From: Candidatus Iainarchaeum sp.
GTDB taxonomy: Archaea; Iainarchaeota; Iainarchaeia; Iainarchaeales; 0-14-0-20-34-12
Assembly (NCBI GenBank): GCA_030649345.1
Contig: JAUSKK010000041.1
Span: 1 to 26,045 of the forward strand
DNA length: 26,045 bases
Direction of reading: 5' to 3'
In this document: positions 4,762 through 26,045 of the stretch, piece after piece
Layout: each line of letters starts with the position of its first letter
Numbering within the stretch: the stretch's first letter is position 1
The notes under the pieces: generated by a model
What the model was told of the DNA's origin: nothing
What the model saw: the letters and a program-made list of their open reading frames with translations, nothing else
Database searches by the model: none
Translations under genes and position numbers: made by a program

Positions 4762-5460
4762 ATGATTCCTTTGAAAAATCGTGCTCAAGTTAAACGCTTG
4801 AATGTTTCAAATCATTCTTTAGGCAAACCCGGAGAATATGCTTCGGCTGTTCGTTTGGGGCGAATTGTTTTTCATCCCGAAAAAAAAGGCTCGAAAGTTT
4901 CTTCTCATCGGGTGGCTGTAAAATTTTTCAAACCCAAACATCCTTTGACACCCCAACGAGTTCGAGTTTATGAATCCGTAATTGAAAGGCTTAGAACTGC
5001 TGGAATTAAAATGCCTAAAATTGGCTTTGCAGAACACGAAGGACAATGGGTTCAAGTAAGCGGAGTATATGGAAGCAAATCTCGCACAAAATTAGATATT
5101 CGTCTTGATTCAAAATATTTACAGCAGCCTGAGCATGCCGAGCGCTTGCTTTCAGTTTGTTTAAAATTAATGAACGCAGGATTTCCTCCGTTTGGTGATG
5201 CAATTGGAGTCATTCAAACTTCTAGAGGTCCGTTGTTTCGTGTGTATGATTTAGATGCTTTGGTAGATTTTGAAGGACTAAAACCAAAGAAAAAATCTCA
5301 GTTAATGGGACTTCATTTAACTTCCATTTTTCAATTGCTATCCAGTGCTGGCTGGGATTATATTTCTGTGATGGATGCACTTGAACCCAGTCTTAGAAAT
5401 CAAGACGCTAAAAATGTGATTGCTGGTTTGCGGGCACAATTGGTCCGAGGTGGGCATTAA
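4762..5460 (+). CDS. Hypothetical protein, possibly a minimal or degenerate protein-kinase-like fold
   Basis: 232 aa. Candidate motifs are a Gly-rich LGKPGEYASAV, a beta3-Lys in VAVKFFK, ...GFPPFGDAIGVI... at the catalytic-loop position, and ...VYDLDALV... as a DFG-like element. The start is 13 nt after adk and the stop is 1 nt before the next ATG. Confidence 0.55.
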   Translation: MIPLKNRAQVKRLNVSNHSLGKPGEYASAVRLGRIVFHPEKKGSKVSSHRVAVKFFKPKHPLTPQRVRVYESVIERLRTAGIKMPKIGFAEHEGQWVQVSGVYGSKSRTKLDIRLDSKYLQQPEHAERLLSVCLKLMNAGFPPFGDAIGVIQTSRGPLFRVYDLDALVDFEGLKPKKKSQLMGLHLTSIFQLLSSAGWDYISVMDALEPSLRNQDAKNVIAGLRAQLVRGGH

Positions 5461-5461
5461 A

Positions 5462-5974
5462 ATGTTGTTGATTTTTTGCGGTTTACCGGGTACTGGAAAA
5501 AGTTCTTTGGCTAAAAAACTAATTTCCAAGTTTAAAGCAGTTCATTTGAATTCAGATGTAATTCGAAAAGAATTGTTTAAAGAAAGAACCTATTCTGAAG
5601 AAGAAAAAGAACAAGTGTATTTAAAATTATTTGAATTAACTGAACAAGAACTAAAAAAAGAAACCAATGTAATCTTGGACGCTACTTTTTTCAAAGATTT
5701 TTACCGTAAAAAAGTTGTAGTTTTGGCTAAAAAGTTAAAGGTTCCTTTTTATTTTATTGAATGTACTTTGCCTTCAGATATTGTGAAAGAACGAATTCTT
5801 TCCAGAAAAAATTCTGTCAGCGAAGCTGACTTTAAAGTATATCAAAAGCTTAAACGCGACTTTGAACCCATTCGCCAGGTTCATTTAAGTTTAGATATGT
5901 CTCAAAATTTTAAAGAACAATTTGAAAAAATTCAAGAATTTATTTCCAAAACCAAAAAACAAAAATTGATCTAA
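5462..5974 (+). CDS. P-loop kinase, AAA_33 / zeta-toxin-like ATP-binding protein
   Basis: MLLIFCGLPGTGKSSLAKKL (Walker A), ...VILDATFF... (Walker B-like), ...ERILSR.... I chose the start at ATG 5462 (TAAAATG junction) rather than the track's 5420. Confidence 0.75.
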   Translation: MLLIFCGLPGTGKSSLAKKLISKFKAVHLNSDVIRKELFKERTYSEEEKEQVYLKLFELTEQELKKETNVILDATFFKDFYRKKVVVLAKKLKVPFYFIECTLPSDIVKERILSRKNSVSEADFKVYQKLKRDFEPIRQVHLSLDMSQNFKEQFEKIQEFISKTKKQKLI

Positions 5975-5975
5975 T

Positions 5976-6977
5976 ATGAATGCCACTCCAGACTTTTTAT
6001 CTGATTTAAAAAACGCAAAAGCATATGCTCATCCAGTTCAAGAAATTAAATTAATTGAAACCCATATTTCGTGGGTTTTTTTAACTGGTGATTTTGTTTA
6101 TAAAATCAAAAAACCTGTTCAATTTTCTTTTTTAGATTATTCTACTTTGGATAAACGAAAGTTTTTCTGCCAAGAAGAATTGCGATTAAACCAGTGTTTA
6201 TCTCCCGATTTGTATCTTGGATTATCTGCAATTGTGAAAACTTCAGAAGGCTATCAAATTTCAGATAATGTAAGCAATGCTGTTGAATTTTGTGTCAAAA
6301 TGAAACAATTGCCGGAAGAAAAAAGGTTAAATCATTTATTGGAACAAAAACAAGTTTCTAAAGAAGATGTTGAACAAATTGCACAAGTTTTAGCTGACTT
6401 TCATTCTAAAGCAAAAATTATCTCAGATCCTGAATATTCTAAGCCTGAAAAAATTTTGTCTGAAATCAATGATATTATGAATGTAGGTCCTGTTGTAGAA
6501 AAAGAATTTTCTTTAACCAGTGTTTTGGATTATGTTTTGAAAAAATGTGCCAAATTTTCTTTCAATCATGCCGATTATTTCACTGAACGTTTTAATCAAA
6601 ACAAAATTCGGGAATGCCATGGAGACTTGCATTCAGCCAATATTTTTTTGATTGAAGGAAAGCCTTGGATTTTTGACTGCATTGAATTCAATAAAGACTT
6701 TCAGTACATTGACGTTGCTTCCGATGTAGCCTTTATGGCAATGGATTTAGATGCTTTTGGGCGCGAAGATTTAAGTGCTCATTTTGTTTCTAAATATCTT
6801 GAATTTTCGCAAGATTTAGACTTGAAAAAAATGCTTGACTTTTATAAATGCTATAAAGCCAATGTTCGTGCCAAAATTGCTGCTTTTGAATTTATGCAAA
6901 CCAATAGTTCGGAAGCACGTGAACGTATTCGAAAATACATCCGCTTATGCGAACGTTATTCTGAACGTTTGGTTTAA
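5976..6977 (+). CDS. Aminoglycoside-phosphotransferase-like (APH/ePK-like) kinase
   Basis: ...IETHISWVFLTGDFVYKIKKPVQFSFLDYSTLDKRKFFCQEELRLNQCLSPDLYLG... and the catalytic HGDLHSANIF...FDCIEF. Together with 5462..5974 this matches the two halves of proteins usually annotated 'bifunctional aminoglycoside phosphotransferase/ATP-binding protein'. Confidence 0.75.
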   Translation: MNATPDFLSDLKNAKAYAHPVQEIKLIETHISWVFLTGDFVYKIKKPVQFSFLDYSTLDKRKFFCQEELRLNQCLSPDLYLGLSAIVKTSEGYQISDNVSNAVEFCVKMKQLPEEKRLNHLLEQKQVSKEDVEQIAQVLADFHSKAKIISDPEYSKPEKILSEINDIMNVGPVVEKEFSLTSVLDYVLKKCAKFSFNHADYFTERFNQNKIRECHGDLHSANIFLIEGKPWIFDCIEFNKDFQYIDVASDVAFMAMDLDAFGREDLSAHFVSKYLEFSQDLDLKKMLDFYKCYKANVRAKIAAFEFMQTNSSEARERIRKYIRLCERYSERLV

Positions 6978-7065
6978 GTGTTTGAAATTTGTATCAATAA
7001 TAGTGCTTTTTTAAGCCTTTTTGTAATAAATTTAGTATTCTATTTGAAATTAGGTGATTTTGGTT

Positions 7066-8319
7066 ATGGTTGAAAAATTTAAAGTAAAAGATTTAAGTTT
7101 AGCAGAACAAGGATTCAAGAATATTGAATATGCTGAAACCCAAATGGGTGCTTTATTGGAAGTCAAGAAAAGATTTGAAAAAGAAAAACCATTTAAAGGT
7201 TTAACCATTGGAATGGCTTTGCATGTCACCAAAGAAACTGCTGTACTTGTTAGAACTTTGGTTGCCGGCGGAGCTACTGTAGCTATTACGGGCTGTAATC
7301 CTTTGAGTACTCAAGATGATGTGGCTGCAGCTTTAGCTGAAGAAGGAGTTCATGTATTTGGCTGGAAACATGAAACCAACAAAGAATATTATGAAAATTT
7401 AAACTATGTTTTAGATTACAAGCCTCAAGCAACCATTGATGACGGGTGTGACTTAGTTACTATTATTCACACAGAACGAAAAGATTTATTGTCTGTTGTA
7501 AAAGCAGGCACTGAAGAAACTACTACTGGAGTTATTCGCTTGAAAGCTATGGAGCGAGATAAAGCTTTAAAGTATCCTGTGATTGCAGTGAATGATAATA
7601 AAACCAAGCATTTAGTGGATAATTATTATGGTACTGGTCAAAGTACTATGGATGGAATTTTGCGTGCAACCAATACTTTGATTGCTGGAAAAACATTTGT
7701 AATCGCAGGCTATGGAGATTGCGGAAAAGGTCTTGCACTTAGAGCTAAAGGTTTTGGAGCCAATGTAATTGTTACAGAAGTAGATCCTTTTCCTGCACTG
7801 AAAGCAAGCTTGGATGGTTTTCGAGTAATGCCTATGGCTGATGCTTCCTCTTTAGGTGATATTTTTGTTACAGTTACAGGAAACAAAAATGTTGTTACTT
7901 ACGATCATATGCTTTCTATGAAATCTGGCGCTATTGTTGCAAATTCCGGCCATTTTGATGCAGAAATTGATGTTCGAACTCTGCGGGCTAAAGCAAAAAG
8001 CGTTCGCCAATTGCGTCCATCTCTTGAAGAATATACTTTAACAAATGGAACCAAAATTTTATTATGTTCCGAAGGAAGACTAGTAAATCTTTCAGCAGCC
8101 GAAGGGCATCCTTCTTCTGTAATGAGTTTAAGTTTTTGCGGTCAAGCTTTGGCTTTAGAATATGCACTCAAAAATAAATTGAATGCAGGCGTTCATTACA
8201 TGCCGGAAAGTGTAGATCAATTAATTTCGGATTTACAATTAAAAGCTTTAGGAATTCAAATTGATAAACTAACTCCAGAACAAATTGAATACATGAATTC
8301 TTGGAAAGAAGGAACGTAA
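7066..8319 (+). CDS. ahcY: S-adenosyl-L-homocysteine hydrolase
   Basis: ...HVTKETAVL..., ...DDGCDL..., ...EETTTGV..., NAD site ...IAGYGDCGKG..., ...GHFDAEID..., ...VNLSAAEGHP.... AGGTGA (7052-7057) lies 8 nt upstream of ATG 7066. The track's 7054 is a GTG inside the RBS. Confidence 0.95.
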   Translation: MVEKFKVKDLSLAEQGFKNIEYAETQMGALLEVKKRFEKEKPFKGLTIGMALHVTKETAVLVRTLVAGGATVAITGCNPLSTQDDVAAALAEEGVHVFGWKHETNKEYYENLNYVLDYKPQATIDDGCDLVTIIHTERKDLLSVVKAGTEETTTGVIRLKAMERDKALKYPVIAVNDNKTKHLVDNYYGTGQSTMDGILRATNTLIAGKTFVIAGYGDCGKGLALRAKGFGANVIVTEVDPFPALKASLDGFRVMPMADASSLGDIFVTVTGNKNVVTYDHMLSMKSGAIVANSGHFDAEIDVRTLRAKAKSVRQLRPSLEEYTLTNGTKILLCSEGRLVNLSAAEGHPSSVMSLSFCGQALALEYALKNKLNAGVHYMPESVDQLISDLQLKALGIQIDKLTPEQIEYMNSWKEGT

Positions 8320-8332
8320 AGTTCCTTTTTTT
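8311..8332 (+). terminator. Hairpin plus T7 terminator at the ahcY stop codon
   Basis: GGAAC-gtaaa-GTTCC, with the TAA stop in the loop, followed by TTTTTTT (8326-8332). Confidence 0.5.
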
Positions 8333-8334
8333 AT

Positions 8335-8985
8335 CTATTTTTTGTGCCGAATAATAAGTCCGCCTTCGCTGGTGACTTCAATTTGATATTTTTTTTCTAA
8401 TCTTGTTAACTCTCCGGTTCTTGCCATCCCAGTTCTGACTGTTGTAATTCTTAAGGCTCCATTTTCTCTTAATGCTGGCATTAATTGCTCAACCAATCCA
8501 GAAAGTGTTTCTTGTCCATTCATTGGGAAATAGGCTTCGGGTACTAAAATATGATCATAGAACTTTTTTGAATATTTGTGGGTAAACATGTTTCCTTGAC
8601 TTGCTTTCAGTTTTCCGGCTTTTATTAATCTATAAATTTTTCCTTTCAAGTACGGCAAATATTCTCCGTACGCAATGTCTAATAGTTCATAGTTTTCGGG
8701 TTTTAGTGGTGTGCGTTTCAGTAAATAATCTGTAAGCCTTCCGGTTCCGCTTCCAATTTCCAATACACGCGTTTCTGACCTAAGCGAAGAAAAAAATGCG
8801 CTATCTAATTTCAAATGTTGCCGCAGTATCCACGGTGCATTCATGGACCATTGCTGGTAATAGCCTCGAAATCTAACTTGTCGTTCAGACTGTGGCCTAG
8901 TGTCATAGATTGTGCGCCGCGGTCTTACTTTTATTTTCTTTTGTCCTGGAATTCTTCGTTTTTGCGGTGTTCTTATTTTCTGCAT
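8335..8985 (-). CDS. Class I SAM-dependent methyltransferase with an Arg/Lys-rich N-terminal extension
   Basis: Motif I is VLEIGSGTGRLTDYLL. The N-terminus MQKIRTPQKRRIPGQKKIKVRPRRTIYDTRPQSERQVRFRG precedes the fold. ATG 8985 is 16 nt after the stop of the upstream membrane gene. An alternative start at MNAPW (about 8844) would remove the tail. Confidence 0.75.
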   Translation of the reverse strand: MQKIRTPQKRRIPGQKKIKVRPRRTIYDTRPQSERQVRFRGYYQQWSMNAPWILRQHLKLDSAFFSSLRSETRVLEIGSGTGRLTDYLLKRTPLKPENYELLDIAYGEYLPYLKGKIYRLIKAGKLKASQGNMFTHKYSKKFYDHILVPEAYFPMNGQETLSGLVEQLMPALRENGALRITTVRTGMARTGELTRLEKKYQIEVTSEGGLIIRHKK

Positions 8986-9000
8986 TAACACATCGTGCGT

Positions 9001-9360
9001 TTAAGTCATTAAATAGTTTGCCATTCCGCTGGTCAAAAAAACAAGTCCTGCAGTTAACGGAAAAGTCCATCTTTCAAGTTTTGTGTTTGCAATAAAAATC
9101 CGCACAGTCAAAATTAAAATTCCATAAAAGAATAATGGCGAAAGTATGGGCATTGGAATCCAGCCCAGCATTTTGATGACTTCCGGCATGGTAAACATGA
9201 ACAAAATGAACACAAACGTTCCGCGAATCCAGGGCTTTTCTGGATTTTGAATTTTCACAAGGCAAGCAAAAGCAAACAACCAATGCAAATTACTTAGGGT
9301 TAAATTTAGAAAGAATCCGATGTTCAAATTTAAAACATTTAATAGTACTTCTTCAATCAT
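9001..9360 (-). CDS. Small integral membrane protein, paralogue of 23385..23753
   Basis: 119 aa with about 4 TM segments. ...LNIGFFLNLTLSNLHWLFAFACL...KPWI...LGW... aligns with ...LDLGWLLNYTISNFLWLFMFAALA...KTWI...TGW... of the other copy. Confidence 0.65.
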   Translation of the reverse strand: MIEEVLLNVLNLNIGFFLNLTLSNLHWLFAFACLVKIQNPEKPWIRGTFVFILFMFTMPEVIKMLGWIPMPILSPLFFYGILILTVRIFIANTKLERWTFPLTAGLVFLTSGMANYLMT

Positions 9361-9400
9361 GTTCCTAATACTATTGTTTTTTTCTCTTAAAGTACTCTAG

Positions 9401-9422
9401 TAGTCCTGTTCTAGTAGGACTA
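9401..9422. promoter_or_regulatory. Inverted repeat (candidate operator) just upstream of the TrmB-gene TATA box
   Basis: TAGTCCT-gttctagt-AGGACTA, embedded in a direct repeat CTAGTAG...CTAGTAG (9397-9417). It ends 12 nt before the TATA box. Confidence 0.4.
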
Positions 9423-9433
9423 GTTTCCATATC

Positions 9434-9441
9434 TTTAAATA
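9434..9441 (+). promoter_or_regulatory. TATA box of the TrmB-like regulator gene (leaderless mRNA)
   Basis: TTTAAATA within CTTTAAATACT. 22 nt separate the box from ATG 9464, and there is no Shine-Dalgarno. Confidence 0.55.
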
Positions 9442-9463
9442 CTCCTTGCCAGTTAATGAGTAT

Positions 9464-10213
9464 ATGAACTCTGAATTTTTGGAACGCATTGGTTTAACCC
9501 ATACTGAATCTTTGGTTTATTTGGCATTGTTCAAACTGGGTGCTTGTAAAGCCTATGATATTATTCGGGAAACCAATTTGCATAAATCTCGAGTCTATGA
9601 TTCTTTGGATCGTTTGCTGGAAAAAGGTTTGATTGGTTCTGTTATGCATGAACAAGTAAAACATTTTGCTGTATTGGATCCAGAGCATTTGCTTGATTTT
9701 GTGGAAGAGCGCAAAAAAGAATTGGATGGCTTAAGACTAGAAGCCAAGAAAAAGTTGCCGGAATTGGTTGCTTTGCGTGAATTGGATTCTCAAAAGCCTT
9801 TTGCTGAAGCTCAAGTTTTGTTTGGAGTCGAAGGCTTTAAATCCATGCGCAGAGATTTGTTAAAACATTCTAAAGGAGAACATTTGATGATGGGTGCTAT
9901 TTCCCGCGAACCCAAAGTTATGCCTGTTTTTTTTAATTGGTTTGAACGTGAACGCATTCGTCAAAAAATTTTTCAAAGAATTTTATTGCAAAAAGGATAC
10001 GATAAGCCTTTGCCTAAAAAAAGGCTGGTTGAATTTCGCAGTTTGCCTTCAGAAATTACTGTGCCGGCAGTCATTAATGTTTATGGTGACCGAGTAGTCA
10101 ATGTTTTATGGAAAAAAGATTATCCTTTGTGTTTTATGTTGGTCAATAAAGACATTGCAGATGCGTATAGATCTTATTTTGATTTGTTGTGGAAGACTAG
10201 TTCTAAAGTTTAA
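9464..10213 (+). CDS. TrmB-family winged-helix transcriptional regulator
   Basis: MNSEFLERIGLTHTESLVYLALFKLGACKAYDIIRETNLHKSRVYDSLDRLLEKGLI is a TrmB N-terminal wHTH, followed by a coiled linker and a C-terminal domain. I chose the start at ATG 9464, which is 22 nt after a TTTAAATA box; the track's 9446 is a TTG. Confidence 0.8.
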   Translation: MNSEFLERIGLTHTESLVYLALFKLGACKAYDIIRETNLHKSRVYDSLDRLLEKGLIGSVMHEQVKHFAVLDPEHLLDFVEERKKELDGLRLEAKKKLPELVALRELDSQKPFAEAQVLFGVEGFKSMRRDLLKHSKGEHLMMGAISREPKVMPVFFNWFERERIRQKIFQRILLQKGYDKPLPKKRLVEFRSLPSEITVPAVINVYGDRVVNVLWKKDYPLCFMLVNKDIADAYRSYFDLLWKTSSKV

Positions 10214-10248
10214 TTTTTTTAAAAGTTTTTATACTTGGTTTTTCAAAT

Positions 10249-10575
10249 CTATGCTCCATATCTTTCAAATCGAATAACTTTTTCAGCCGTAATGTCCGCC
10301 AGTATGCTTACGCTTTGATCAGTTGGTCCATTTGGCAGATCATACATAACTGTGTATAATTTGTTTAAAGTATTGGAAGGACTTGAGTGTCCTATTGCAT
10401 TGGTAACTTTGTATTCTATTCCAAAATTCTTTTTGTTTGGAAAATGTTTTTCAAGTTCTTGATCTGCAATTTGAATTGCTTTTTTTTGCTCTTGTGTCCA
10501 ATTTATGTTTAAATTTGCAGACGTAACTTTTTTTGAATTAAACATAGCAAACAGTACAATTTCTGTGATAATCAA
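10249..10575 (-). CDS. Hypothetical small protein (possibly signal-anchored)
   Basis: 108-aa ORF 52 nt downstream of the KaiC-like gene on the same strand, with no recognisable family. The start is uncertain: TTG at 10575 gives a hydrophobic N-terminus IITEIVLFAMF, and the ATG at 10545 is the alternative. Confidence 0.45.
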   Translation of the reverse strand: MIITEIVLFAMFNSKKVTSANLNINWTQEQKKAIQIADQELEKHFPNKKNFGIEYKVTNAIGHSSPSNTLNKLYTVMYDLPNGPTDQSVSILADITAEKVIRFERYGA

Positions 10576-10627
10576 TGCGATTGGTATGTATAATTTTTTT
10601 CTATTCGCATATTGGTTTGTGTTAAAT

Positions 10628-11341
10628 TTATTTCATTGCATCCCATTGTACATGGTCTTTGGTGTTGACTGCAATTCCGTTGTTGGTGATGTCAAAAGTG
10701 TGAATGAATTTGCTTTGATTTGTGCCTCTCATTTTTTTCACAAACAATGCTCTAGTCGGAGGATTAAAGTATAATGCAATAACTCCATCCACAATGAATT
10801 CTTCTACGCCCATTCCTGAAAAGGCTTCTTTTTTTCCAGAAGTTTCTGTGGTTAAAACTGTGGTAACATCCATGTCTTTGAGTTTATTGGTGAAATCGTA
10901 CAATATTCCTCTGAGTTTTGCTTTTTGAGTAATCCAGATTCCAAACGCTGTAACTGTATCTACCACAATTCTAGTTGCTCCAATTTCTTCAACTGTTTCT
11001 GCAATGACATCCAATTCATCGTCAATGCGATCTTCTACATTGTCGTCTTGTGAGTCTTGTTCTAAATTGAGTCTATAAATTCTTAGCAAATTTTTTTCCT
11101 GTAAGCTTCGAATATTCCAGTTAAAGCTTTCCATATTCCATACAATGTTCTTCAGATTAGTTTCCAAGGTGACCAAGAGTCCTGGTTCTTTGTAGTCTAA
11201 GGCTCCTTTGTATAAGAATTGGGTGGCAAAAATTGTTTTTCCAGTTCCTGCTCCGCCTGCAATCAAGCAAGAGCTTCCTTTGGGTATTCCTCCTTGAATT
11301 AATTCATCCAATCCTGGAATTCCTGTCTTTACGCGGTCCAC
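10628..11341 (-). CDS. Single-domain KaiC/RadA-like RecA-superfamily ATPase
   Basis: ...KTGIPGLDELIQGGIPKGSSCLIAGGAGTGKTIFATQFLYKG... (Walker A), ...RIVVDTVTAF... (Walker B). 237 aa. GTG start preceded by AGGGGGA. Confidence 0.85.
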   Translation of the reverse strand: MDRVKTGIPGLDELIQGGIPKGSSCLIAGGAGTGKTIFATQFLYKGALDYKEPGLLVTLETNLKNIVWNMESFNWNIRSLQEKNLLRIYRLNLEQDSQDDNVEDRIDDELDVIAETVEEIGATRIVVDTVTAFGIWITQKAKLRGILYDFTNKLKDMDVTTVLTTETSGKKEAFSGMGVEEFIVDGVIALYFNPPTRALFVKKMRGTNQSKFIHTFDITNNGIAVNTKDHVQWDAMK

Positions 11342-11381
11342 TTAAAATCCCCCTTTTTACTCATTTTTGTGATTTATTTAA

Positions 11382-11462
11382 AAAGCTTTGATATTATTAG
11401 GGGTTGCTTTTTTTTAAAGCTTTGTGCCGAAGGCTTTTTGCTAAAGCTTTTTTAAAAGCTTT
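11382..11462. promoter_or_regulatory. Cluster of four AAAGCTTT palindromes in the divergent KaiC-like / scpA intergenic region
   Basis: Exact AAAGCTTT at 11382-11389, 11416-11423, 11443-11450 and 11455-11462. I saw only about four other copies in the remaining 26 kb. Confidence 0.45.
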
Positions 11463-11514
11463 TGTTGAAATAATCTATTAGAAACTCTTGTTTTTTGAGT
11501 GTGTTTTGCATACT

Positions 11515-11522
11515 TTTAAATA
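11515..11522 (+). promoter_or_regulatory. TATA box of scpA (leadered mRNA with an AGGTG RBS)
   Basis: TTTAAATA lies 40 nt upstream of ATG 11562. AGGTG is at 11552-11556. Confidence 0.45.
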
Positions 11523-11561
11523 GGTGAAATGTATACTTATGTTGCCTGAAAAGGTGTTTAT

Positions 11562-12353
11562 ATGAAGTCTGACAACTCCCAACTTAACTTAGCGAAAAGC
11601 ATTGCTATTGAAGATATTGGGGAAGAATCTGTTTTTTCAGTAAATTCTACGGATGATTTAGTTCAATTAATTCATTTCCCTGAATGGAAAATGATTTTAT
11701 TAGATTTAATTAAAAAAGAAAAAATGGATGTCTGGGCCATCGACATTGGTGTTTTGGCTGGAAAGTATTTGAAAAAAATTGAAGAATTAAAAGAAACCAG
11801 TTTGCGTTTACCAGCCAATGCTATTTTGGCTTCAGCAATTTTGCTTCATTTAAAATCAAAAACCATTCGTTTTCCTTGGCTGGAAGTCAAAGAACCTGAA
11901 TTAACCGAAGAACAAAAGCAAGCCATGATGGCTTCTTTGCCAGACTTAACTACTTCGTTTAAAGTCAAAGAAGGAATTGTTACTTTAGATGAATTGGTGG
12001 GTTCCATTGAAGAAATCATGGAGCAAATGAAAATTAAACCCAAAGATAAAGTGCGTGCAGAAATTATTAAACCTGAATTTTTAGTGAATGTAACTCAAGA
12101 AAATTGGGATCAAAAAGTCGAAGAAGTTTTTTCTTTAATTCAATCCAGAGTAGACTCTCAAGGATTAACTTTGTTTTCTCGTTTATTGGATAGCCCTGAT
12201 GTTTTGGAAAAAATTAACAAATTTGTTCCTTTATTGTTTTTAATGAATAAAGGAAAAATTAAAATGGTTCAAGAAACTTTTTTTGAAGAAATTTTTATTC
12301 AGTTATTAAACAATACTTTAGTTGAAGTTCCCGAAGGAACTGCAGAAGAATAA
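11562..12353 (+). CDS. scpA: Segregation and condensation protein A (kleisin)
   Basis: ...WKMILLDLIKKEKMDVWAIDIGVLAGKYLKKIEELKE...LRLPANAILASAILLHLKSK... matches the ScpA N-terminal domain. AGGTG lies 6 nt upstream of the ATG. Confidence 0.8.
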   Translation: MKSDNSQLNLAKSIAIEDIGEESVFSVNSTDDLVQLIHFPEWKMILLDLIKKEKMDVWAIDIGVLAGKYLKKIEELKETSLRLPANAILASAILLHLKSKTIRFPWLEVKEPELTEEQKQAMMASLPDLTTSFKVKEGIVTLDELVGSIEEIMEQMKIKPKDKVRAEIIKPEFLVNVTQENWDQKVEEVFSLIQSRVDSQGLTLFSRLLDSPDVLEKINKFVPLLFLMNKGKIKMVQETFFEEIFIQLLNNTLVEVPEGTAEE

Positions 12354-12354
12354 A

Positions 12355-13419
12355 CTACTGAATTATTCTTTTAAATCTTAAATATCCTTGTACTGCTTCA
12401 TAAAAGGATTCAGGTCTTTTAGGATTAATTACTTTAAACACTTCTTGAATATCTTTTATAGTTGCAGTTTGTGCTGCTGTGTTTGCAATTCTGGAAATAT
12501 ATTTTTCATTTTGGTGTCCTGTTTGAATCATCGCTGATTGAACCACGGCTCCAAACATGGCTTTTACGTAATCTTCTTTAGCTACTTTTTTTGGAGTCAT
12601 TATCATTTTTCTAGCCAATGCATCGTCTGGAAAAAATTGAGTTGGTTGTCGATCAAAATTTCTTCGAATTTGCACTCTGGGATTTCCTGCAAATATTCTT
12701 CTTAATTCTTGAAAAGGCAAAGTATGAAATTCTCCCAATCGTACAAAAATTCGTTCATTTTTGCCTTTCTTTTCTTTTAATCGTTCATTGATTTCTGCTT
12801 GGAGTCTTTCTCGAATTGCTGGATCTCTGATTTTGAGTGGTTCAATATATGCTTTCATTAAATTAGTGAATGAATTCAAAGCAAAACCATAATTTCCTTG
12901 TTCAATGGCTTGTCCAAAATTTTGTTGATGTATGCTCATTCGTTGTTCAAATTCACTAACTTGTTCAGCTAAATCTCCTTTGAGCTGTTCTCCAATGATT
13001 CTGACTCCTTTTCGTTTCAATTCATTGGTTAATCTATCTTGTTCTTGATGAAATCCTTCCATGCCTGGTCTTATTTCAGTATCCTGTATTCCTGGAATTT
13101 TCTGAACCTGGTTTAAAAATGTTTCAACGCGTCTTTTGAGAACATCTAATGGTTCTTTGCTTCCTTTGCTTTTTAAATGTCTTACAATTTCAGTTACAGC
13201 TTCATCTATTTTTCCTTCAGCTACCAATGCATCAATATTGGATCGTGCTCATTCTTTAAAATAAGCATCTCCTTTTTTGAGTCTTCTGGTTTGTCTTCGA
13301 AGTCTGTTTATTGTTTGTTCTTGTAAATGTGGGCCAAATGAAAAATGTACGTGTACTTTTTTTGTGCCGGATTTTCTTCTTCGAATGTTTTGAATTCCAG
13401 CAGGCGCTCTAGGTTTCAT
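12355..13419 (-). pseudogene. Paralogue of 13470..14549 interrupted by a single in-frame TGA (13249..13251). Either a pseudogene or a read-through candidate.
   Basis: Track ORFs 13249..13437 and 12355..13227 are in the same frame, separated only by TGA plus 7 sense codons. Across the junction the sequence reads ...KKGDAYFKE*ARSNIDALVAEGK..., which is colinear with ...RKGDVYFKEGIANQAQQLLLEGK... in the neighbour. Confidence 0.65.
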
Positions 13420-13469
13420 ATAATTATTGTATTTCAACTGAATTAAATAATTTCCGTTTAGTCAAATTT

Positions 13470-14549
13470 TCAAGGCAAGGGAATGACTTGTCTTCTGCGA
13501 AGCAATCCGTGTTCTCTTAAAAAGTATTCAATTCTATCGTAAAATTCATTAGTACTTATTCTTTGGTTGCCCATGAGCCGTTTGAGTGTTTGTTCGTTAA
13601 TAATTCTGGAAGCATTGATTGCAGTTTTTTCCACAAATTTTCGATTTATCAAGCCTTTTGCATGCAGGGTATTTTGAACTATTTCAAAAACAAAGCCTTG
13701 CATTAATTTTTCTCGGCTTACTGGTTTGCCTTGAATCAAGCGTTCTGTTACTTCTTTGTCTCTTCTGCGCGAAGGATTTTGAATATCCAATTCTTCTTGA
13801 ATGTGTATTCTGGAATTTCCTTTAAATTTTTCTCGCAATTTCCGCATAGGTTCTGTGTGCCCTGCGCCCAATCGTACTAAAATAGTTCTTTTTTGCTTTG
13901 TTCGAATTGCTTCTTGTATTCGTTCATGAATTTGTTCGTAAATTCGTTCATCTCTTCGAGGTACTAATTCAGCTACTCTTGTAAGAATTTCTTGATATTC
14001 GTTTAATGCCTCGGAAATATTTCCCGCTAAAAGTTCTTGTTGCATGCGATGTGCATGACCTTTAATTTTTTTGTTTAACCGTCCGTATTCTTCATCTTCT
14101 TTTAAACCATACCATTCTACTTCAGGTAAGACGCCTTTTTTTCGTTGTTCTTCAATAAGTTCTCTTTCTTCTTTTTTGAATTTTTGCCGATCTATTTGTT
14201 CTGCGCTTTCTAAATATTCAAGAGCTAGCTGTCTTCGTTCACTGGCTGTCTTTCCTGCATAGTTTGGGTTGTTTTTAATCATTTGTCCAACCAATGCAAG
14301 TGCTTCGTTTCGTTTTCCTTCTAAAAGCAATTGCTGTGCTTGATTGGCAATTCCTTCTTTAAAATATACATCTCCTTTTCGCAATTGCTTGGCTAGCTTC
14401 CGTGTTCTAAGTAAATCCCATTTATCCATATGCATTCCCAAAGAAAAAATTACTTTAACTCCAGGCTTTCTGTACAGTCTTTTTCTCTGATTTGCTTTTC
14501 TTCCAGCCGGCAAAGAAGGATACTTTGGTCTTGTTCTTCGTGCTTGCAT
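13470..14549 (-). CDS. Uncharacterised protein with an Arg/Lys-rich leader and two G-x-x-H/Glu repeats (Tiki/TraB-like?)
   Basis: I chose the start at ATG 14549 (MQARRTRPKYPSLPAGRKANQRKR...), which matches the paralogue's N-terminus and removes the overlap with dinB. Motifs: VIFSLGMHMD...KGDVYFKE and ...ILVRLGAGHTEPM...RIHIQEE. Confidence 0.8.
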   Translation of the reverse strand: MQARRTRPKYPSLPAGRKANQRKRLYRKPGVKVIFSLGMHMDKWDLLRTRKLAKQLRKGDVYFKEGIANQAQQLLLEGKRNEALALVGQMIKNNPNYAGKTASERRQLALEYLESAEQIDRQKFKKEERELIEEQRKKGVLPEVEWYGLKEDEEYGRLNKKIKGHAHRMQQELLAGNISEALNEYQEILTRVAELVPRRDERIYEQIHERIQEAIRTKQKRTILVRLGAGHTEPMRKLREKFKGNSRIHIQEELDIQNPSRRRDKEVTERLIQGKPVSREKLMQGFVFEIVQNTLHAKGLINRKFVEKTAINASRIINEQTLKRLMGNQRISTNEFYDRIEYFLREHGLLRRRQVIPLP

Positions 14550-14635
14550 AGTAATAAATTTCTTCAATTCCTTAATTAATCTATGGTTGCAAATGAATGA
14601 TGTCAAATTAATATATTGTGAATACAAAAGATAGT

Positions 14636-15751
14636 ATGCATCATTCATTTGAACGAATTGTTTTGCATTTGGATTTGAATTATTTTTTTGCCCAAGCCGA
14701 AGAATTAAGAAAACCTGAATTGAAATGCAAACCAGTGGTTGTCTGTGTTTACTCGGGCCGCACTCCTACTTCTGGTGCTGTAGGCACTTCCAATTATCTT
14801 GCACGTGCTTTAGGCATTAAGTCAGGCCAACCTATTTTTCAAGCCCAGCAAAAAGCTACTCCAGAAACTGTTTTTTTGCCAGTAGATATTCAATACTATA
14901 AAATTATTTCCATTCAAGTAATGGAAATTTTAAAATCACACTCAGATTCTTTTGAGTCTGGGGGTGTAGATGAAGCGTTTATTGAAATCACGCAAGCATG
15001 CAAAGGAAATTACAAGAAAGCCAAAGAACTGGCTGAAGAAATCAAAAAAGATTTATTGCAAAAAACTGGGTTAATTTGCAGTATTGGAATTGCACCCAAT
15101 AAACTGTTGGCCAAAATTGCTTCAGATTTTCAAAAACCAGATGGTTTAACTATCCTTGAACCTTTTCAAGTTCAAAAATTTATCAATCCTTTATCTGTGA
15201 GTGTTATTTCAGGAATTGGTCCCAAAACAGCTGAACACTTGAAAGAATTGCATGTTGAAAAAGTTTCTGAGCTGGCAAAACTGCAAAAAAGTGTTTTAAT
15301 TCAAGAATTCGGAAATGCCAAAGGAGACTTTTTGTTCCAAGCAGCTCAAGGTCTAGATGAAAGTCCAGTTCAAGAAAGTTCTGAACACCAGCAGTTTTCT
15401 CGTATGACTACTTTGAAAAAAGATTCTAAAAATTTAACTGAACTTATCGAAGTTTCAATTCCTTTAATGAACGAATTATGTGCCCGCTGTCAAAAAGAAA
15501 ACATTTTCTTCAAAACCATTTCCATTGTTTTAGTCTCAACTAAACTAGAATCGTTTACTAAAGCCAAAACTGTCCTTGCACCAACCCACGATTTGAAAAT
15601 TTTTCAACAAACTGTACAATCTCTTTTTTCTGACTTTTTAAAATTGCACACAGATTTTACTGCCCGCAGATTGGGCATTTCAGTTTCTCATTTTTCAAGT
15701 TCTTTTAAACCTTCACTTTCAGAAAAACAACGTACATTAAACGAATTTTAA
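14636..15751 (+). CDS. dinB: Y-family DNA polymerase IV (Dpo4/DinB)
   Basis: ...IVLHLDLNYFFAQAEE..., ...GGVDEAFIE..., ...SIGIAPNKLLAKIASDFQKPDG..., ...ISGIGPKTAEHL.... ATG 14636 is preferred over the track's GTG at 14618. Confidence 0.9.
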   Translation: MHHSFERIVLHLDLNYFFAQAEELRKPELKCKPVVVCVYSGRTPTSGAVGTSNYLARALGIKSGQPIFQAQQKATPETVFLPVDIQYYKIISIQVMEILKSHSDSFESGGVDEAFIEITQACKGNYKKAKELAEEIKKDLLQKTGLICSIGIAPNKLLAKIASDFQKPDGLTILEPFQVQKFINPLSVSVISGIGPKTAEHLKELHVEKVSELAKLQKSVLIQEFGNAKGDFLFQAAQGLDESPVQESSEHQQFSRMTTLKKDSKNLTELIEVSIPLMNELCARCQKENIFFKTISIVLVSTKLESFTKAKTVLAPTHDLKIFQQTVQSLFSDFLKLHTDFTARRLGISVSHFSSSFKPSLSEKQRTLNEF

Positions 15752-15753
15752 TG

Positions 15754-15760
15754 TTTTTTT
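15754..15760 (+). terminator. Oligo-T terminator after dinB
   Basis: TTTTTTT begins 3 nt after the TAA stop. Archaeal termination commonly uses oligo-T tracts. Confidence 0.4.
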
Positions 15761-15799
15761 CTGAAATGTTTTATTAATCCTTGTTTCCAAGAATTAAAT

Positions 15800-16456
15800 A
15801 TGGTTCAATCTTCTTTAGCTCCAGTTGTTGTTTTAATAGGCCGTGCTGCTTCCGGTAAAACTACTTCAGCAGAAACTTTAGCTCGAAAAAGTCCAGTTCC
15901 AGTGGTTGTTTTTGGCGGCTTTATTCGAAAAGAAATTGAAGAAAATACTCTAATTGGCCAGAAAGCCATGGCGGGTTTGAAAACCCAAGGTTTTGTTCCA
16001 ACTGAAATTTACATGAATTATATTAATAATTTAATTCAAGCCAATCCTGCAAAATTTAGAAATGGTTTTATTGTAGAAGCTTTTCCCAGGAGTGTTTTTC
16101 AAGTTCCTGAATTTGAGAAATTTTTGCGCAGTAAAGGAATGAGAATTGCACATGTTTTTTTGTTTAATGTTTCTAAAAAAACCAGTGCTCGAAGACTGCA
16201 AACTCGTGCAAAACAAACTGGACGAGAAGATGTTTTGCCAGTAGAACAAAGACAAGCTTTGTTTGACCAGCATGCCGGTCGTTTGCTGGCTGAATTTGGA
16301 ACCAAAGGTATGGTCTCTGTAGTTAATTCCAATCATTTGCCTATCCGCAGAATGACTAACTTTTTTTTAGCACGCCATAAAGCACGCGTTCGTACTGTTC
16401 GAAAAAGTAAGCTTAGAATTATTCGTCCGCGTATTCCTCGTTTGCCTAGAAGATAA
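15800..16456 (+). CDS. Divergent short-type adenylate/NMP-kinase-like protein with an Arg-rich C-terminal tail
   Basis: ...VVVLIGRAASGKTTSAE... (degenerate P-loop), ...GFIVEAFPRSVFQ... (compare GFILDGFPR in adk), no Zn lid. The C-terminus is RRMTNFFLARHKARVRTVRKSKLRIIRPRIPRLPRR. Confidence 0.7.
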   Translation: MVQSSLAPVVVLIGRAASGKTTSAETLARKSPVPVVVFGGFIRKEIEENTLIGQKAMAGLKTQGFVPTEIYMNYINNLIQANPAKFRNGFIVEAFPRSVFQVPEFEKFLRSKGMRIAHVFLFNVSKKTSARRLQTRAKQTGREDVLPVEQRQALFDQHAGRLLAEFGTKGMVSVVNSNHLPIRRMTNFFLARHKARVRTVRKSKLRIIRPRIPRLPRR

Positions 16457-25075: not shown

Positions 25076-25100
25076 GCTTCGCGGAAAGCCTAATTTTTTT
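25076..25100 (+). terminator. Weak hairpin plus T7 run downstream of the Lrp-like regulator
   Basis: GCTTC-gcg-GAAAGC (imperfect), then ctaa and TTTTTTT (25094-25100). The T-run overlaps the stop codon of the convergent his gene. Confidence 0.4.
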
Positions 25101-26045
25101 ACTTATTTCTCCCAGCCAATTCTTTTCCAACTTCTTTGATTGAAACATTATTTTTGGCTGCCATGACTGTCAAAAAGTATTGAATGTCTGCCAGTTCCCA
25201 AACCATATTGTTTCGATCTTGTTTTTGGTCTGCTTCAATGACTTCATTAATTTCTTCTCGAAGTTTTTTTCTTAAAAGAACTGGATTTTCAAATAGTTTT
25301 TTTGTGTACGAACTTGTTTTTGTTCTAACATTTTTTCTTGTGTAAATAATTTTTTCCAATTGATTCAAAAATGTGCTATTGGGTTTTCTGTTTCCAAAAC
25401 AAGTTTCTGTGTTTTTGTGGCAAGCCCTTGTTCCTGTTTGTTCCACTGTAAATAGGATTGTATCCTGGTCACAGTCAAATTCTACTTTTTTAATTTTTTG
25501 AATATTTCCAGATTTCTCTCCTTTCATCCACAATCTATTCCATTTTCGGCTCCAATACCATGCTTTCTCTGTTTTCCATACTTGTTCCAATGACTCAGCA
25601 TTGCTGTACGCCAGCATTAACACTTCTCTTGTACTTTCCTCTTGTACTATTGTTGGAATCAGTTTCTGTTTTTTAAAATCCAGCAAAGGAATGATAAATT
25701 TAGATAAATTTACTTGATTGGCATACAAAGCCATTCCTAGAACTGAATTGATGTTTTGTTTTTCTAGTTTTTTTATTTCTGAAATTTTGGATATTCCTCC
25801 AGCCACAGTTAATTGATTTTTTGTAGTTTTCTTTAATTCCTGAATTGTTTTCCAGTCAATTCCATTCATTTTTCCTTCTCTGTCAATGCAAGTATACAAA
25901 AATTCAGAACAATATCTTTCCAACTTTTTTGCCCGTTCCAATGTTGTTTCTTGCAGTTCTTTTGTCCATCCATTGATTGAAATTTTTCCTTTTTTTGAAT
26001 CCAATGCCACAATAATTTTGTCTTTTCCAATAGCTTTTTTTAATT
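25099..26045 (-). CDS. hisIE: HisA(-like) fused to HisI and HisE (ProFAR isomerase C-terminal part + PR-AMP cyclohydrolase + PR-ATP pyrophosphatase). The 5' end lies beyond the right edge.
   Basis: The frame stays open to position 26045 (...LKKAIGKDKIIVALDSKKGKISINGW...). HisA-like: ...YTCIDREGKMNGIDW...LTVAGGIS...GMALY.... HisI: ...LIPTIVQEESTREVLMLAYSNAESL...AWYWSRKWNRLWMKGEKSGN...FDCDQDTILF.... HisE: ...SYTKKLF...KKLREE..E.....ELADIQYFLTV.... Confidence 0.85.
   Translation of the reverse strand, partial: LKKAIGKDKIIVALDSKKGKISINGWTKELQETTLERAKKLERYCSEFLYTCIDREGKMNGIDWKTIQELKKTTKNQLTVAGGISKISEIKKLEKQNINSVLGMALYANQVNLSKFIIPLLDFKKQKLIPTIVQEESTREVLMLAYSNAESLEQVWKTEKAWYWSRKWNRLWMKGEKSGNIQKIKKVEFDCDQDTILFTVEQTGTRACHKNTETCFGNRKPNSTFLNQLEKIIYTRKNVRTKTSSYTKKLFENPVLLRKKLREEINEVIEADQKQDRNNMVWELADIQYFLTVMAAKNNVSIKEVGKELAGRNK

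Follow-up and report, generated by a model that had tools for sequence, protein, structure and literature searches.

What kind of protein is encoded by the two adjacent genes found between positions 12355 and 14549 of contig JAUSKK010000041.1? The window analysed here is this entire 26-kb contig (26,045 nucleotides), which belongs to a Candidatus Diapherotrites (DPANN) metagenome-assembled genome (MAG). Both reading frames are located on the minus strand and are called copy A (13470..14549) and copy B (12355..13419). They probably represent a very rare, previously undescribed protein family that forms a strongly divergent branch of the TraB/GumN/PrgY/Tiki ("TIKI") superfamily. This placement relies on five ordered residue equivalences carried by matching secondary structure elements, on a similarity between profiles that is modest but reproducible, and on a structural search whose top match belongs to the family specified beforehand.

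Two homologous copies of a very rare family

The two reading frames had been taken for tandem homologues in an earlier note written from the DNA sequence alone. Comparison of copy A with copy B by BLASTP, with an internal stop codon of copy B replaced by Gly, confirms this (27% identity and 48% positives over about 350 residues, E=6e-31), and both the coordinates and every peptide quoted at the time are present in the window. The motifs KGD-x-YFKE, RD-x-I and VRLG-x-x-HT are common to both copies. Copy A is an intact gene encoding 359 amino acids (aa) and ending with a TGA stop codon included in its coordinates. It corresponds exactly to an NCBI protein (Q7S92_05520, P0001). The basic leaders described previously are also found, covering residues 1-30 of copy A (14460..14549 on the minus strand) and residues 1-21 of copy B. 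The copy A leader is rich in Arg, Lys and Pro, is predicted to be disordered (predicted local distance difference test, pLDDT, of about 47-58), has no hydrophobic core and is not conserved among relatives.

The idea that the lineage is locally amplified was overstated. There is a single tandem pair, one copy of which is interrupted. Identity between the two copies is no more than 22-27%, and a distance tree does not join them in one group. This indicates an old duplication rather than a recent local amplification. No tandem copies were identified among the relatives' loci examined. One metagenomic chain of 705 aa (P0004, L004:31-2148) is composed of two complete family domains arranged head to tail, an organisation which echoes the tandem pair of the window.

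Relatives are scarce. A word-indexed search of 5.8 billion proteins returned essentially self-matches only, whether a single sequence, the two-copy profile or a 20-sequence profile was used. When 1.84 billion representatives were scanned in full with HMMER, using the profile of copies A and B, 21 proteins were retrieved at E<=1e-3. Three are the products of the window itself, one (P0007) is a spurious repeat protein and 17 are distant relatives with E-values from 7e-13 to 6e-4. The named sources of these relatives are Candidatus Micrarchaeota MAGs, and two further contigs (L002 and L003) look archaeal. Another contig, L006, is clearly bacterial (MreD, PBP2, DprA and TopA), while L100 is taken as belonging to bacteria resembling the candidate phyla radiation (CPR-like) from a single cue, a faint DUF5671 match. 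The range of the family known so far, a point raised in the earlier note, thus includes mainly DPANN archaea (Diapherotrites and Micrarchaeota) and at least one bacterial contig. Since no Pfam or NCBIfam model recognises any member, the term "undescribed" used at that time is correct.

Conserved residues and predicted fold

The family alignment contains 20 sequences, 16 of which include the N-terminus. Using the numbering of copy A, Arg199, Gly228 and His231 are found in 20/20 sequences, and His40 and Glu65 in all 16 members with an N-terminus. Arg199 is followed by D, E or N. These residues are distributed over a core that was modelled with AlphaFold2 from the 20-sequence alignment and without templates (pLDDT 84, predicted TM-score 0.80). 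The model includes five strands (residues 31-38, 61-69, 141-147, 221-228 and 248-254) alternating with helices, and a long helical hairpin preceding Arg199. A previous run on three sequences had given a pLDDT of 61 and a meaningless Foldseek output.

Going along copy A (all coordinates on the minus strand), strand 1 ends with the first motif and its invariant His40 (VKVIFSLGMH, 14430..14459). Strand 2 carries the invariant Glu65 (GDVYFKE, 14355..14375). The hydrophobic strand followed by G-x-H (VHVHFSFGPH in copy B) and the KGD-x-YFKE motif of both copies had been correctly identified from the sequence. Strand 3 (VLPEVEWY, 14109..14132) coincides with the AlphaFold strand 141-147 and includes a semi-conserved acidic position, Glu143/Glu145, usually Asp or Glu in the alignment and Asp in most relatives. 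It is followed by the helical hairpin (LLAGNISEALNEYQEIL) and by the helix carrying Arg199 (RRDERIYEQI), which together occupy 13929..14033. Strand 4 and the second motif, with the invariant Gly228 and His231 (RTILVRLGAGHT, 13854..13889), precede strand 5 (RIHIQEE, 13791..13811; AlphaFold strand 248-254). The C-terminal end is an all-helical domain (residues about 263-346, 13512..13757), predicted with confidence (helices with pLDDT 87-97) and alignable across the family. This domain is family specific and no counterpart was found in the TraB reference alignment described below.

The first description of these proteins as two half-domains, each with a GxxH and a strand Glu, can therefore be refined. 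The second GxxH and the first strand Glu (Glu65) are retained, and the invariance to be checked according to the note holds for His40, Glu65 and His231. The first motif is [GS]-x-H rather than GxxH: its His is invariant, and its first position is Gly in 9 of the 16 members, Ser in 3 and neither in 3. The second strand Glu, assigned to RIHIQEE, is not conserved and its column (252) is mostly Arg. The linker between the halves, described as a charged helical region of about 200 aa, is in fact about 135 to 160 aa long and is not purely helical, as it includes the conserved third beta-strand.

The hairpin before the invariant Arg (residues 169-207 of copy A, window 13929-14045) shows a weak similarity with MIT domains. 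The family consensus (positions 124-175) matches PF04212 with 25.4 bits (E=1.5e-5), below the cut-off of 30, and only 1/20 members does so individually (E=0.12). The TraB reference profile matches the same MIT chain (2w2u_A) equally weakly through its equivalent hairpin. A genuine MIT domain was rejected for these two reasons, and the signal corresponds to a generic helical hairpin. Sequence searches of the PDB gave only spurious PPR and MIT-like matches.

Probable relationship with the TraB/TIKI superfamily

TraB/GumN/PrgY proteins (PF01963), which include E. coli YbaP and PrgY of the Enterococcus plasmid pCF10, present the same order of elements as the new family: strand 1 and its His, strand 2 and its Glu, a helical insert, strand 3 with an acidic residue, a hairpin, a helix with R-[DEN], strand 4 with GxxH, and strand 5. 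They differ by a first motif of the form G-[ST]-x-H, where the new family has [GS]-x-H. Conversely the family exhibits longer helical inserts and an additional C-terminal helical domain of about 85 aa, and carries no membrane anchor of the PrgY type.

A TraB/GumN/PrgY reference alignment was built from YbaP, six plasmid-borne members from five phyla or classes, and pCF10 PrgY. A metagenome scan with YbaP had returned close enterobacterial relatives only (at least 69% identity). Invariant positions of this reference include G38, H41, E67, R228, G249 and H252, an ordered set shared with the new family. They also include Gln164, for which no counterpart was found in the family. Comparison of the two profiles with hhalign gave P=0.0022 over 85 columns (P=0.0022-0.007 across runs). 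The register superimposes hairpin on hairpin, Arg199 on Arg228 (the RN motif of TraB), Gly228-x-x-His231 on Gly249-x-x-His252, and strand 5 on strand 5. With a 15-sequence version, a second and collinear match aligns His40 with His41 and Glu65 with Glu67, although P is about 0.3 for this match alone. Strand 3 may be equivalent to the "kpvIeLE" strand of TraB, judging from the order of the elements only.

Shuffling by column (150 times) or by block (150 times) never gave a score as high as the real top score or that of the collinear pair, and the reversed profile scored 11.6 compared to 26.9 for the real one. A profile restricted to the enterococcal PrgY/TraB proteins gave the same register (P=0.069).

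The AlphaFold model was also compared with BFVD, a collection of viral predicted structures, using Foldseek. The top match is annotated "TraB family protein [Marseillevirus LCMAC201]" (E=5e-3, probability 1.00, 242 aligned columns). It is the only match below E=0.1, the next one being 90-fold weaker (E=0.46).

Several observations weigh against this relationship or limit its precision. The hhalign probability is only 5-13%. The TM-score of the viral match is below 0.5 (0.29/0.43, the latter on the target) and its root mean square deviation is large. Of the 138 matches given by Foldseek against the PDB, the 50 listed include none to a ChaN, Ere or RRSP structure, and the best of them (E=0.32) belongs to weak P-loop-like noise. 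This empty result may reflect the content of the PDB, where no chain of TraB/GumN type was detectable with the TraB reference profile. The structural comparison proposed in the earlier note gave a TraB match in BFVD and no TIKI-fold match among those listed for the PDB. The profile searches proposed together with it were negative: PF01963, PF04187 and erythromycin esterase (PF05139) gave no match at E<=10 with the 20 members and the consensus. More generally, the Pfam and NCBIfam models for TraB, Ere and ChaN did not match the 20 members, the consensus, trimmed C-terminal halves or constructs with the inserts deleted. A TraB hidden Markov model (HMM) scored individual members at 4 bits or less. 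The sole match to TIGR00261 (1/20 members, E=0.042, 12.8 bits for a cut-off of 178) is at noise level. Relative to GxxH, the first motif lacks one residue. In addition, the order of the strands in the sheet and the clustering of the conserved residues are inferred. Finally, gene contexts vary from locus to locus, with no conserved neighbourhood found.

The uniformly negative HMM-to-sequence tests, the negative PDB comparison, the low hhalign probability and the low TM-score would also fit an unrelated or new alpha/beta fold, sharing His, Glu, Arg and GxxH with TraB by convergence and having any function, for instance that of a metal-dependent phosphatase or nuclease. Such a convergence is nevertheless unlikely, since the five ordered equivalences fall on matching secondary structure elements, the two collinear hhalign matches exceed all 300 permutations, the same register is obtained from two TraB sub-branches, and the single outstanding match of an unbiased structure search bears the name predicted in advance. 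A distant relationship with TraB/TIKI therefore probably accounts better for these data, and the kinship suspected at first sight is supported by residue order, by hhalign (P=0.002) and by the BFVD match. The family is outside PF01963 as this model is now drawn.

A putative His/Glu hydrolase

TIKI enzymes carry a hydrolytic site of two His and two Glu on a five-strand parallel core, and the metal dependence of the active members varies (PMC6254334). This His/Glu constellation on a five-stranded parallel sheet is found in the Wnt-cleaving metalloproteases Tiki1/2 and in RRSP, the Ras/Rap1-specific endopeptidase of MARTX toxins (PMC6254334). Erythromycin esterase and ChaN/Cofac_haem_bdg follow the same His-Glu logic and have been proposed to belong to the same superfamily (PMC6254334). 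Residues His40, Glu65 and His231 would correspond to His3902, Glu3930 and His4030 of RRSP. Glu3900 of RRSP, two residues before the first His, has no such equivalent, this position being Gly or Ser in the family. The substrates, domain context and organisms of Tiki1/2 and RRSP are also unrelated to those of the family.

By analogy with these enzymes, the conserved residues may be grouped at the C-terminal edge of the sheet, where they would form a His/Glu hydrolytic site activating a water molecule to cut a peptide or ester bond. The helical insertions and the C-terminal helical domain would probably select the substrate. The proteins may thus be peptidases or esterases. This activity, which the earlier note had also put forward as "hydrolase-like", is inferred.

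An enzymatic role is not the only one compatible with a TIKI-like fold. The superfamily has non-catalytic members such as the C1 domain of the Pasteurella toxin (PMT), which lacks the 2His/2Glu motif and has no activity (PMC6254334). By comparison with this domain or with the heme-binding ChaN, the proteins could bind a ligand or a protein, with His, Glu and Arg holding a metal, a cofactor or a partner. The large helical additions, including the TPR/MIT-like hairpin, would suit protein binding, and no conserved operon points to a substrate. However, the residues that are invariant across members at 12-25% identity are exactly the catalytic ones of active TIKI enzymes, whereas PMT, the single inactive relative considered in the RRSP paper, has lost them according to that paper (PMC6254334). 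A purely binding function therefore seems improbable, and a hydrolase is preferred.

Localisation may differ between members. Copy A is probably cytoplasmic since, as for copy B, it has no signal peptide. The relative P0006 (L002:323-1360) exhibits a Tat (twin-arginine) signal peptide, indicating that at least some members are exported.

Copy B and its in-frame stop codon

Copy B is a homologue of 354 codons with an in-frame TGA (13249..13251, minus strand) directly 3' of YFKE. That it was not intact had only been implied previously. The TGA separates a 56-aa N-terminal fragment (13252..13419, minus strand; Q7S92_05515, P0003) including the leader, VHVHFSFGPH and GDAYFKE, from a C-terminal part (12355..13248, minus strand) including strand 3, the hairpin, IRD, ERIFVRLGEFHT, strand 5 and the helical domain. 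Within the latter, NCBI calls a protein of 290 aa with a TTG start (Q7S92_05510, P0002; 12355..13227, minus strand). The TGA aligns with a GGA codon (Gly66) of copy A, from which it differs by a single base. Because the 290-aa reading frame is found again in an independent Logan assembly, an assembly artefact probably does not explain the stop. Six of the 30 open reading frames (ORFs) of the window, copy A among them, end with TGA, and the copy B codon is therefore a nonsense codon and not a recoded one.

All key residues (H31, E56, R198, G229 and H232) are retained in copy B although the gene is split inside the core fold. This suggests that copy B is most likely an old paralogue that recently became a pseudogene through a single nonsense codon of the G-to-T type. 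The same retention of every key residue could mean that copy B is not a pseudogene. The 56-aa and 290-aa polypeptides might reassemble, or the TGA might be read through, and the product would pair with copy A. It is in line with this that the TTG-initiated ORF begins 22 nt past the stop, that the stop is reproducible in the second assembly and that P0004 unites two family domains in a natural fusion, representing the same pairing. This scenario is conceivable but rather doubtful: TGA is a normal stop on this contig, the split falls between strand 2 and the remainder of the core, relatives carry Gly or a variable residue but never Cys at the aligned position, which makes selenocysteine unlikely, and two adjacent copies are seen at no other locus. 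Genetic code 25 and a selenocysteine were both rejected as explanations of the TGA, as it terminates six other ORFs and, for selenocysteine, as the aligned position is never Cys among relatives. Recent inactivation of an old paralogue is thus retained for copy B.

Genomic context

The pair is flanked by housekeeping genes, with a KaiC-like ATPase and ScpA on one side, and Dpo4, an adenylate-kinase-like gene, CoaBC and pantothenate kinase on the other. The two copies themselves are separated by a 50 bp spacer (13420..13469, minus strand). Neither tRNA genes nor Rfam elements were found within the window. Two adenylate-kinase-like genes are present on the contig (15800-16456 and 4092-4748). The second shows a weaker ADK match and ends with a strongly Arg-rich tail (…RKSKLRIIRPRIPRLPRR) reminiscent of the basic leaders of the two copies. 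A minus-strand ORF (25099-26010) joins HisI (PRA-CH) and HisE (PRA-PH) to half a HisA/HisF barrel, namely the C-terminal half, which covers profile positions 127-227 of 228. The N-terminal half-barrel is missing at the contig end.

Genes of the methyl cycle and of one-carbon metabolism recur near family members, an observation made post hoc on few contigs and without a statistical test. In the window, an S-adenosylhomocysteine (SAH) hydrolase gene is located about 4 kb from the pair (7054-8319). An S-adenosylmethionine (SAM) synthetase gene adjoins the member in L003 (6685-7860) and is 3 kb away in L002 (4581-5795), and a methyltransferase gene is found 0.7 kb upstream of the member in L100 (3674-4468). 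On the bacterial contig L006, the member is flanked by genes for a pterin-binding protein and thymidylate synthase (7135-10363) and is included in a dense nucleotide/folate cluster (5359-15848; NrdD, pterin-binding protein, CYTH, ThyA, dNK, thymidylate kinase, TK and FTCD).

Significance of the family

It is tempting to propose a biological role for these proteins. They might be dedicated peptide- or protein-processing hydrolases of ultra-small symbionts (DPANN archaea and CPR-like bacteria), acting as pseudo-dimers that consist of a tandem pair or of two fused domains. Their target would be a signalling or surface peptide, to be trimmed or inactivated, much as PrgY acts on a pheromone and as Tiki trims the N-terminus of Wnt. 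Alternatively, since genes for SAM synthetase, SAH hydrolase, a methyltransferase and folate metabolism are repeatedly found nearby, the proteins might be esterases tied to methyl-group metabolism. Taken as a whole, this proposal is speculative and has a low probability of being correct.

This is a modest new family and not a new kind of system. It would nonetheless add to the TraB/Tiki superfamily an unannotated group that accounts for about 17 sequence clusters out of 1.84 billion representatives, and for which no Pfam, DUF or NCBIfam model is available. The superfamily would thereby extend into DPANN archaea with a distinct architecture, in which the first motif is shorter and helices are added both as inserts and as an extra C-terminal domain. 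The family alignment pinpoints five residues for mutation. Most of the superfamily has no known substrate, and an organism with a minimal genome that keeps such an enzyme may offer a simple setting in which to search for one.

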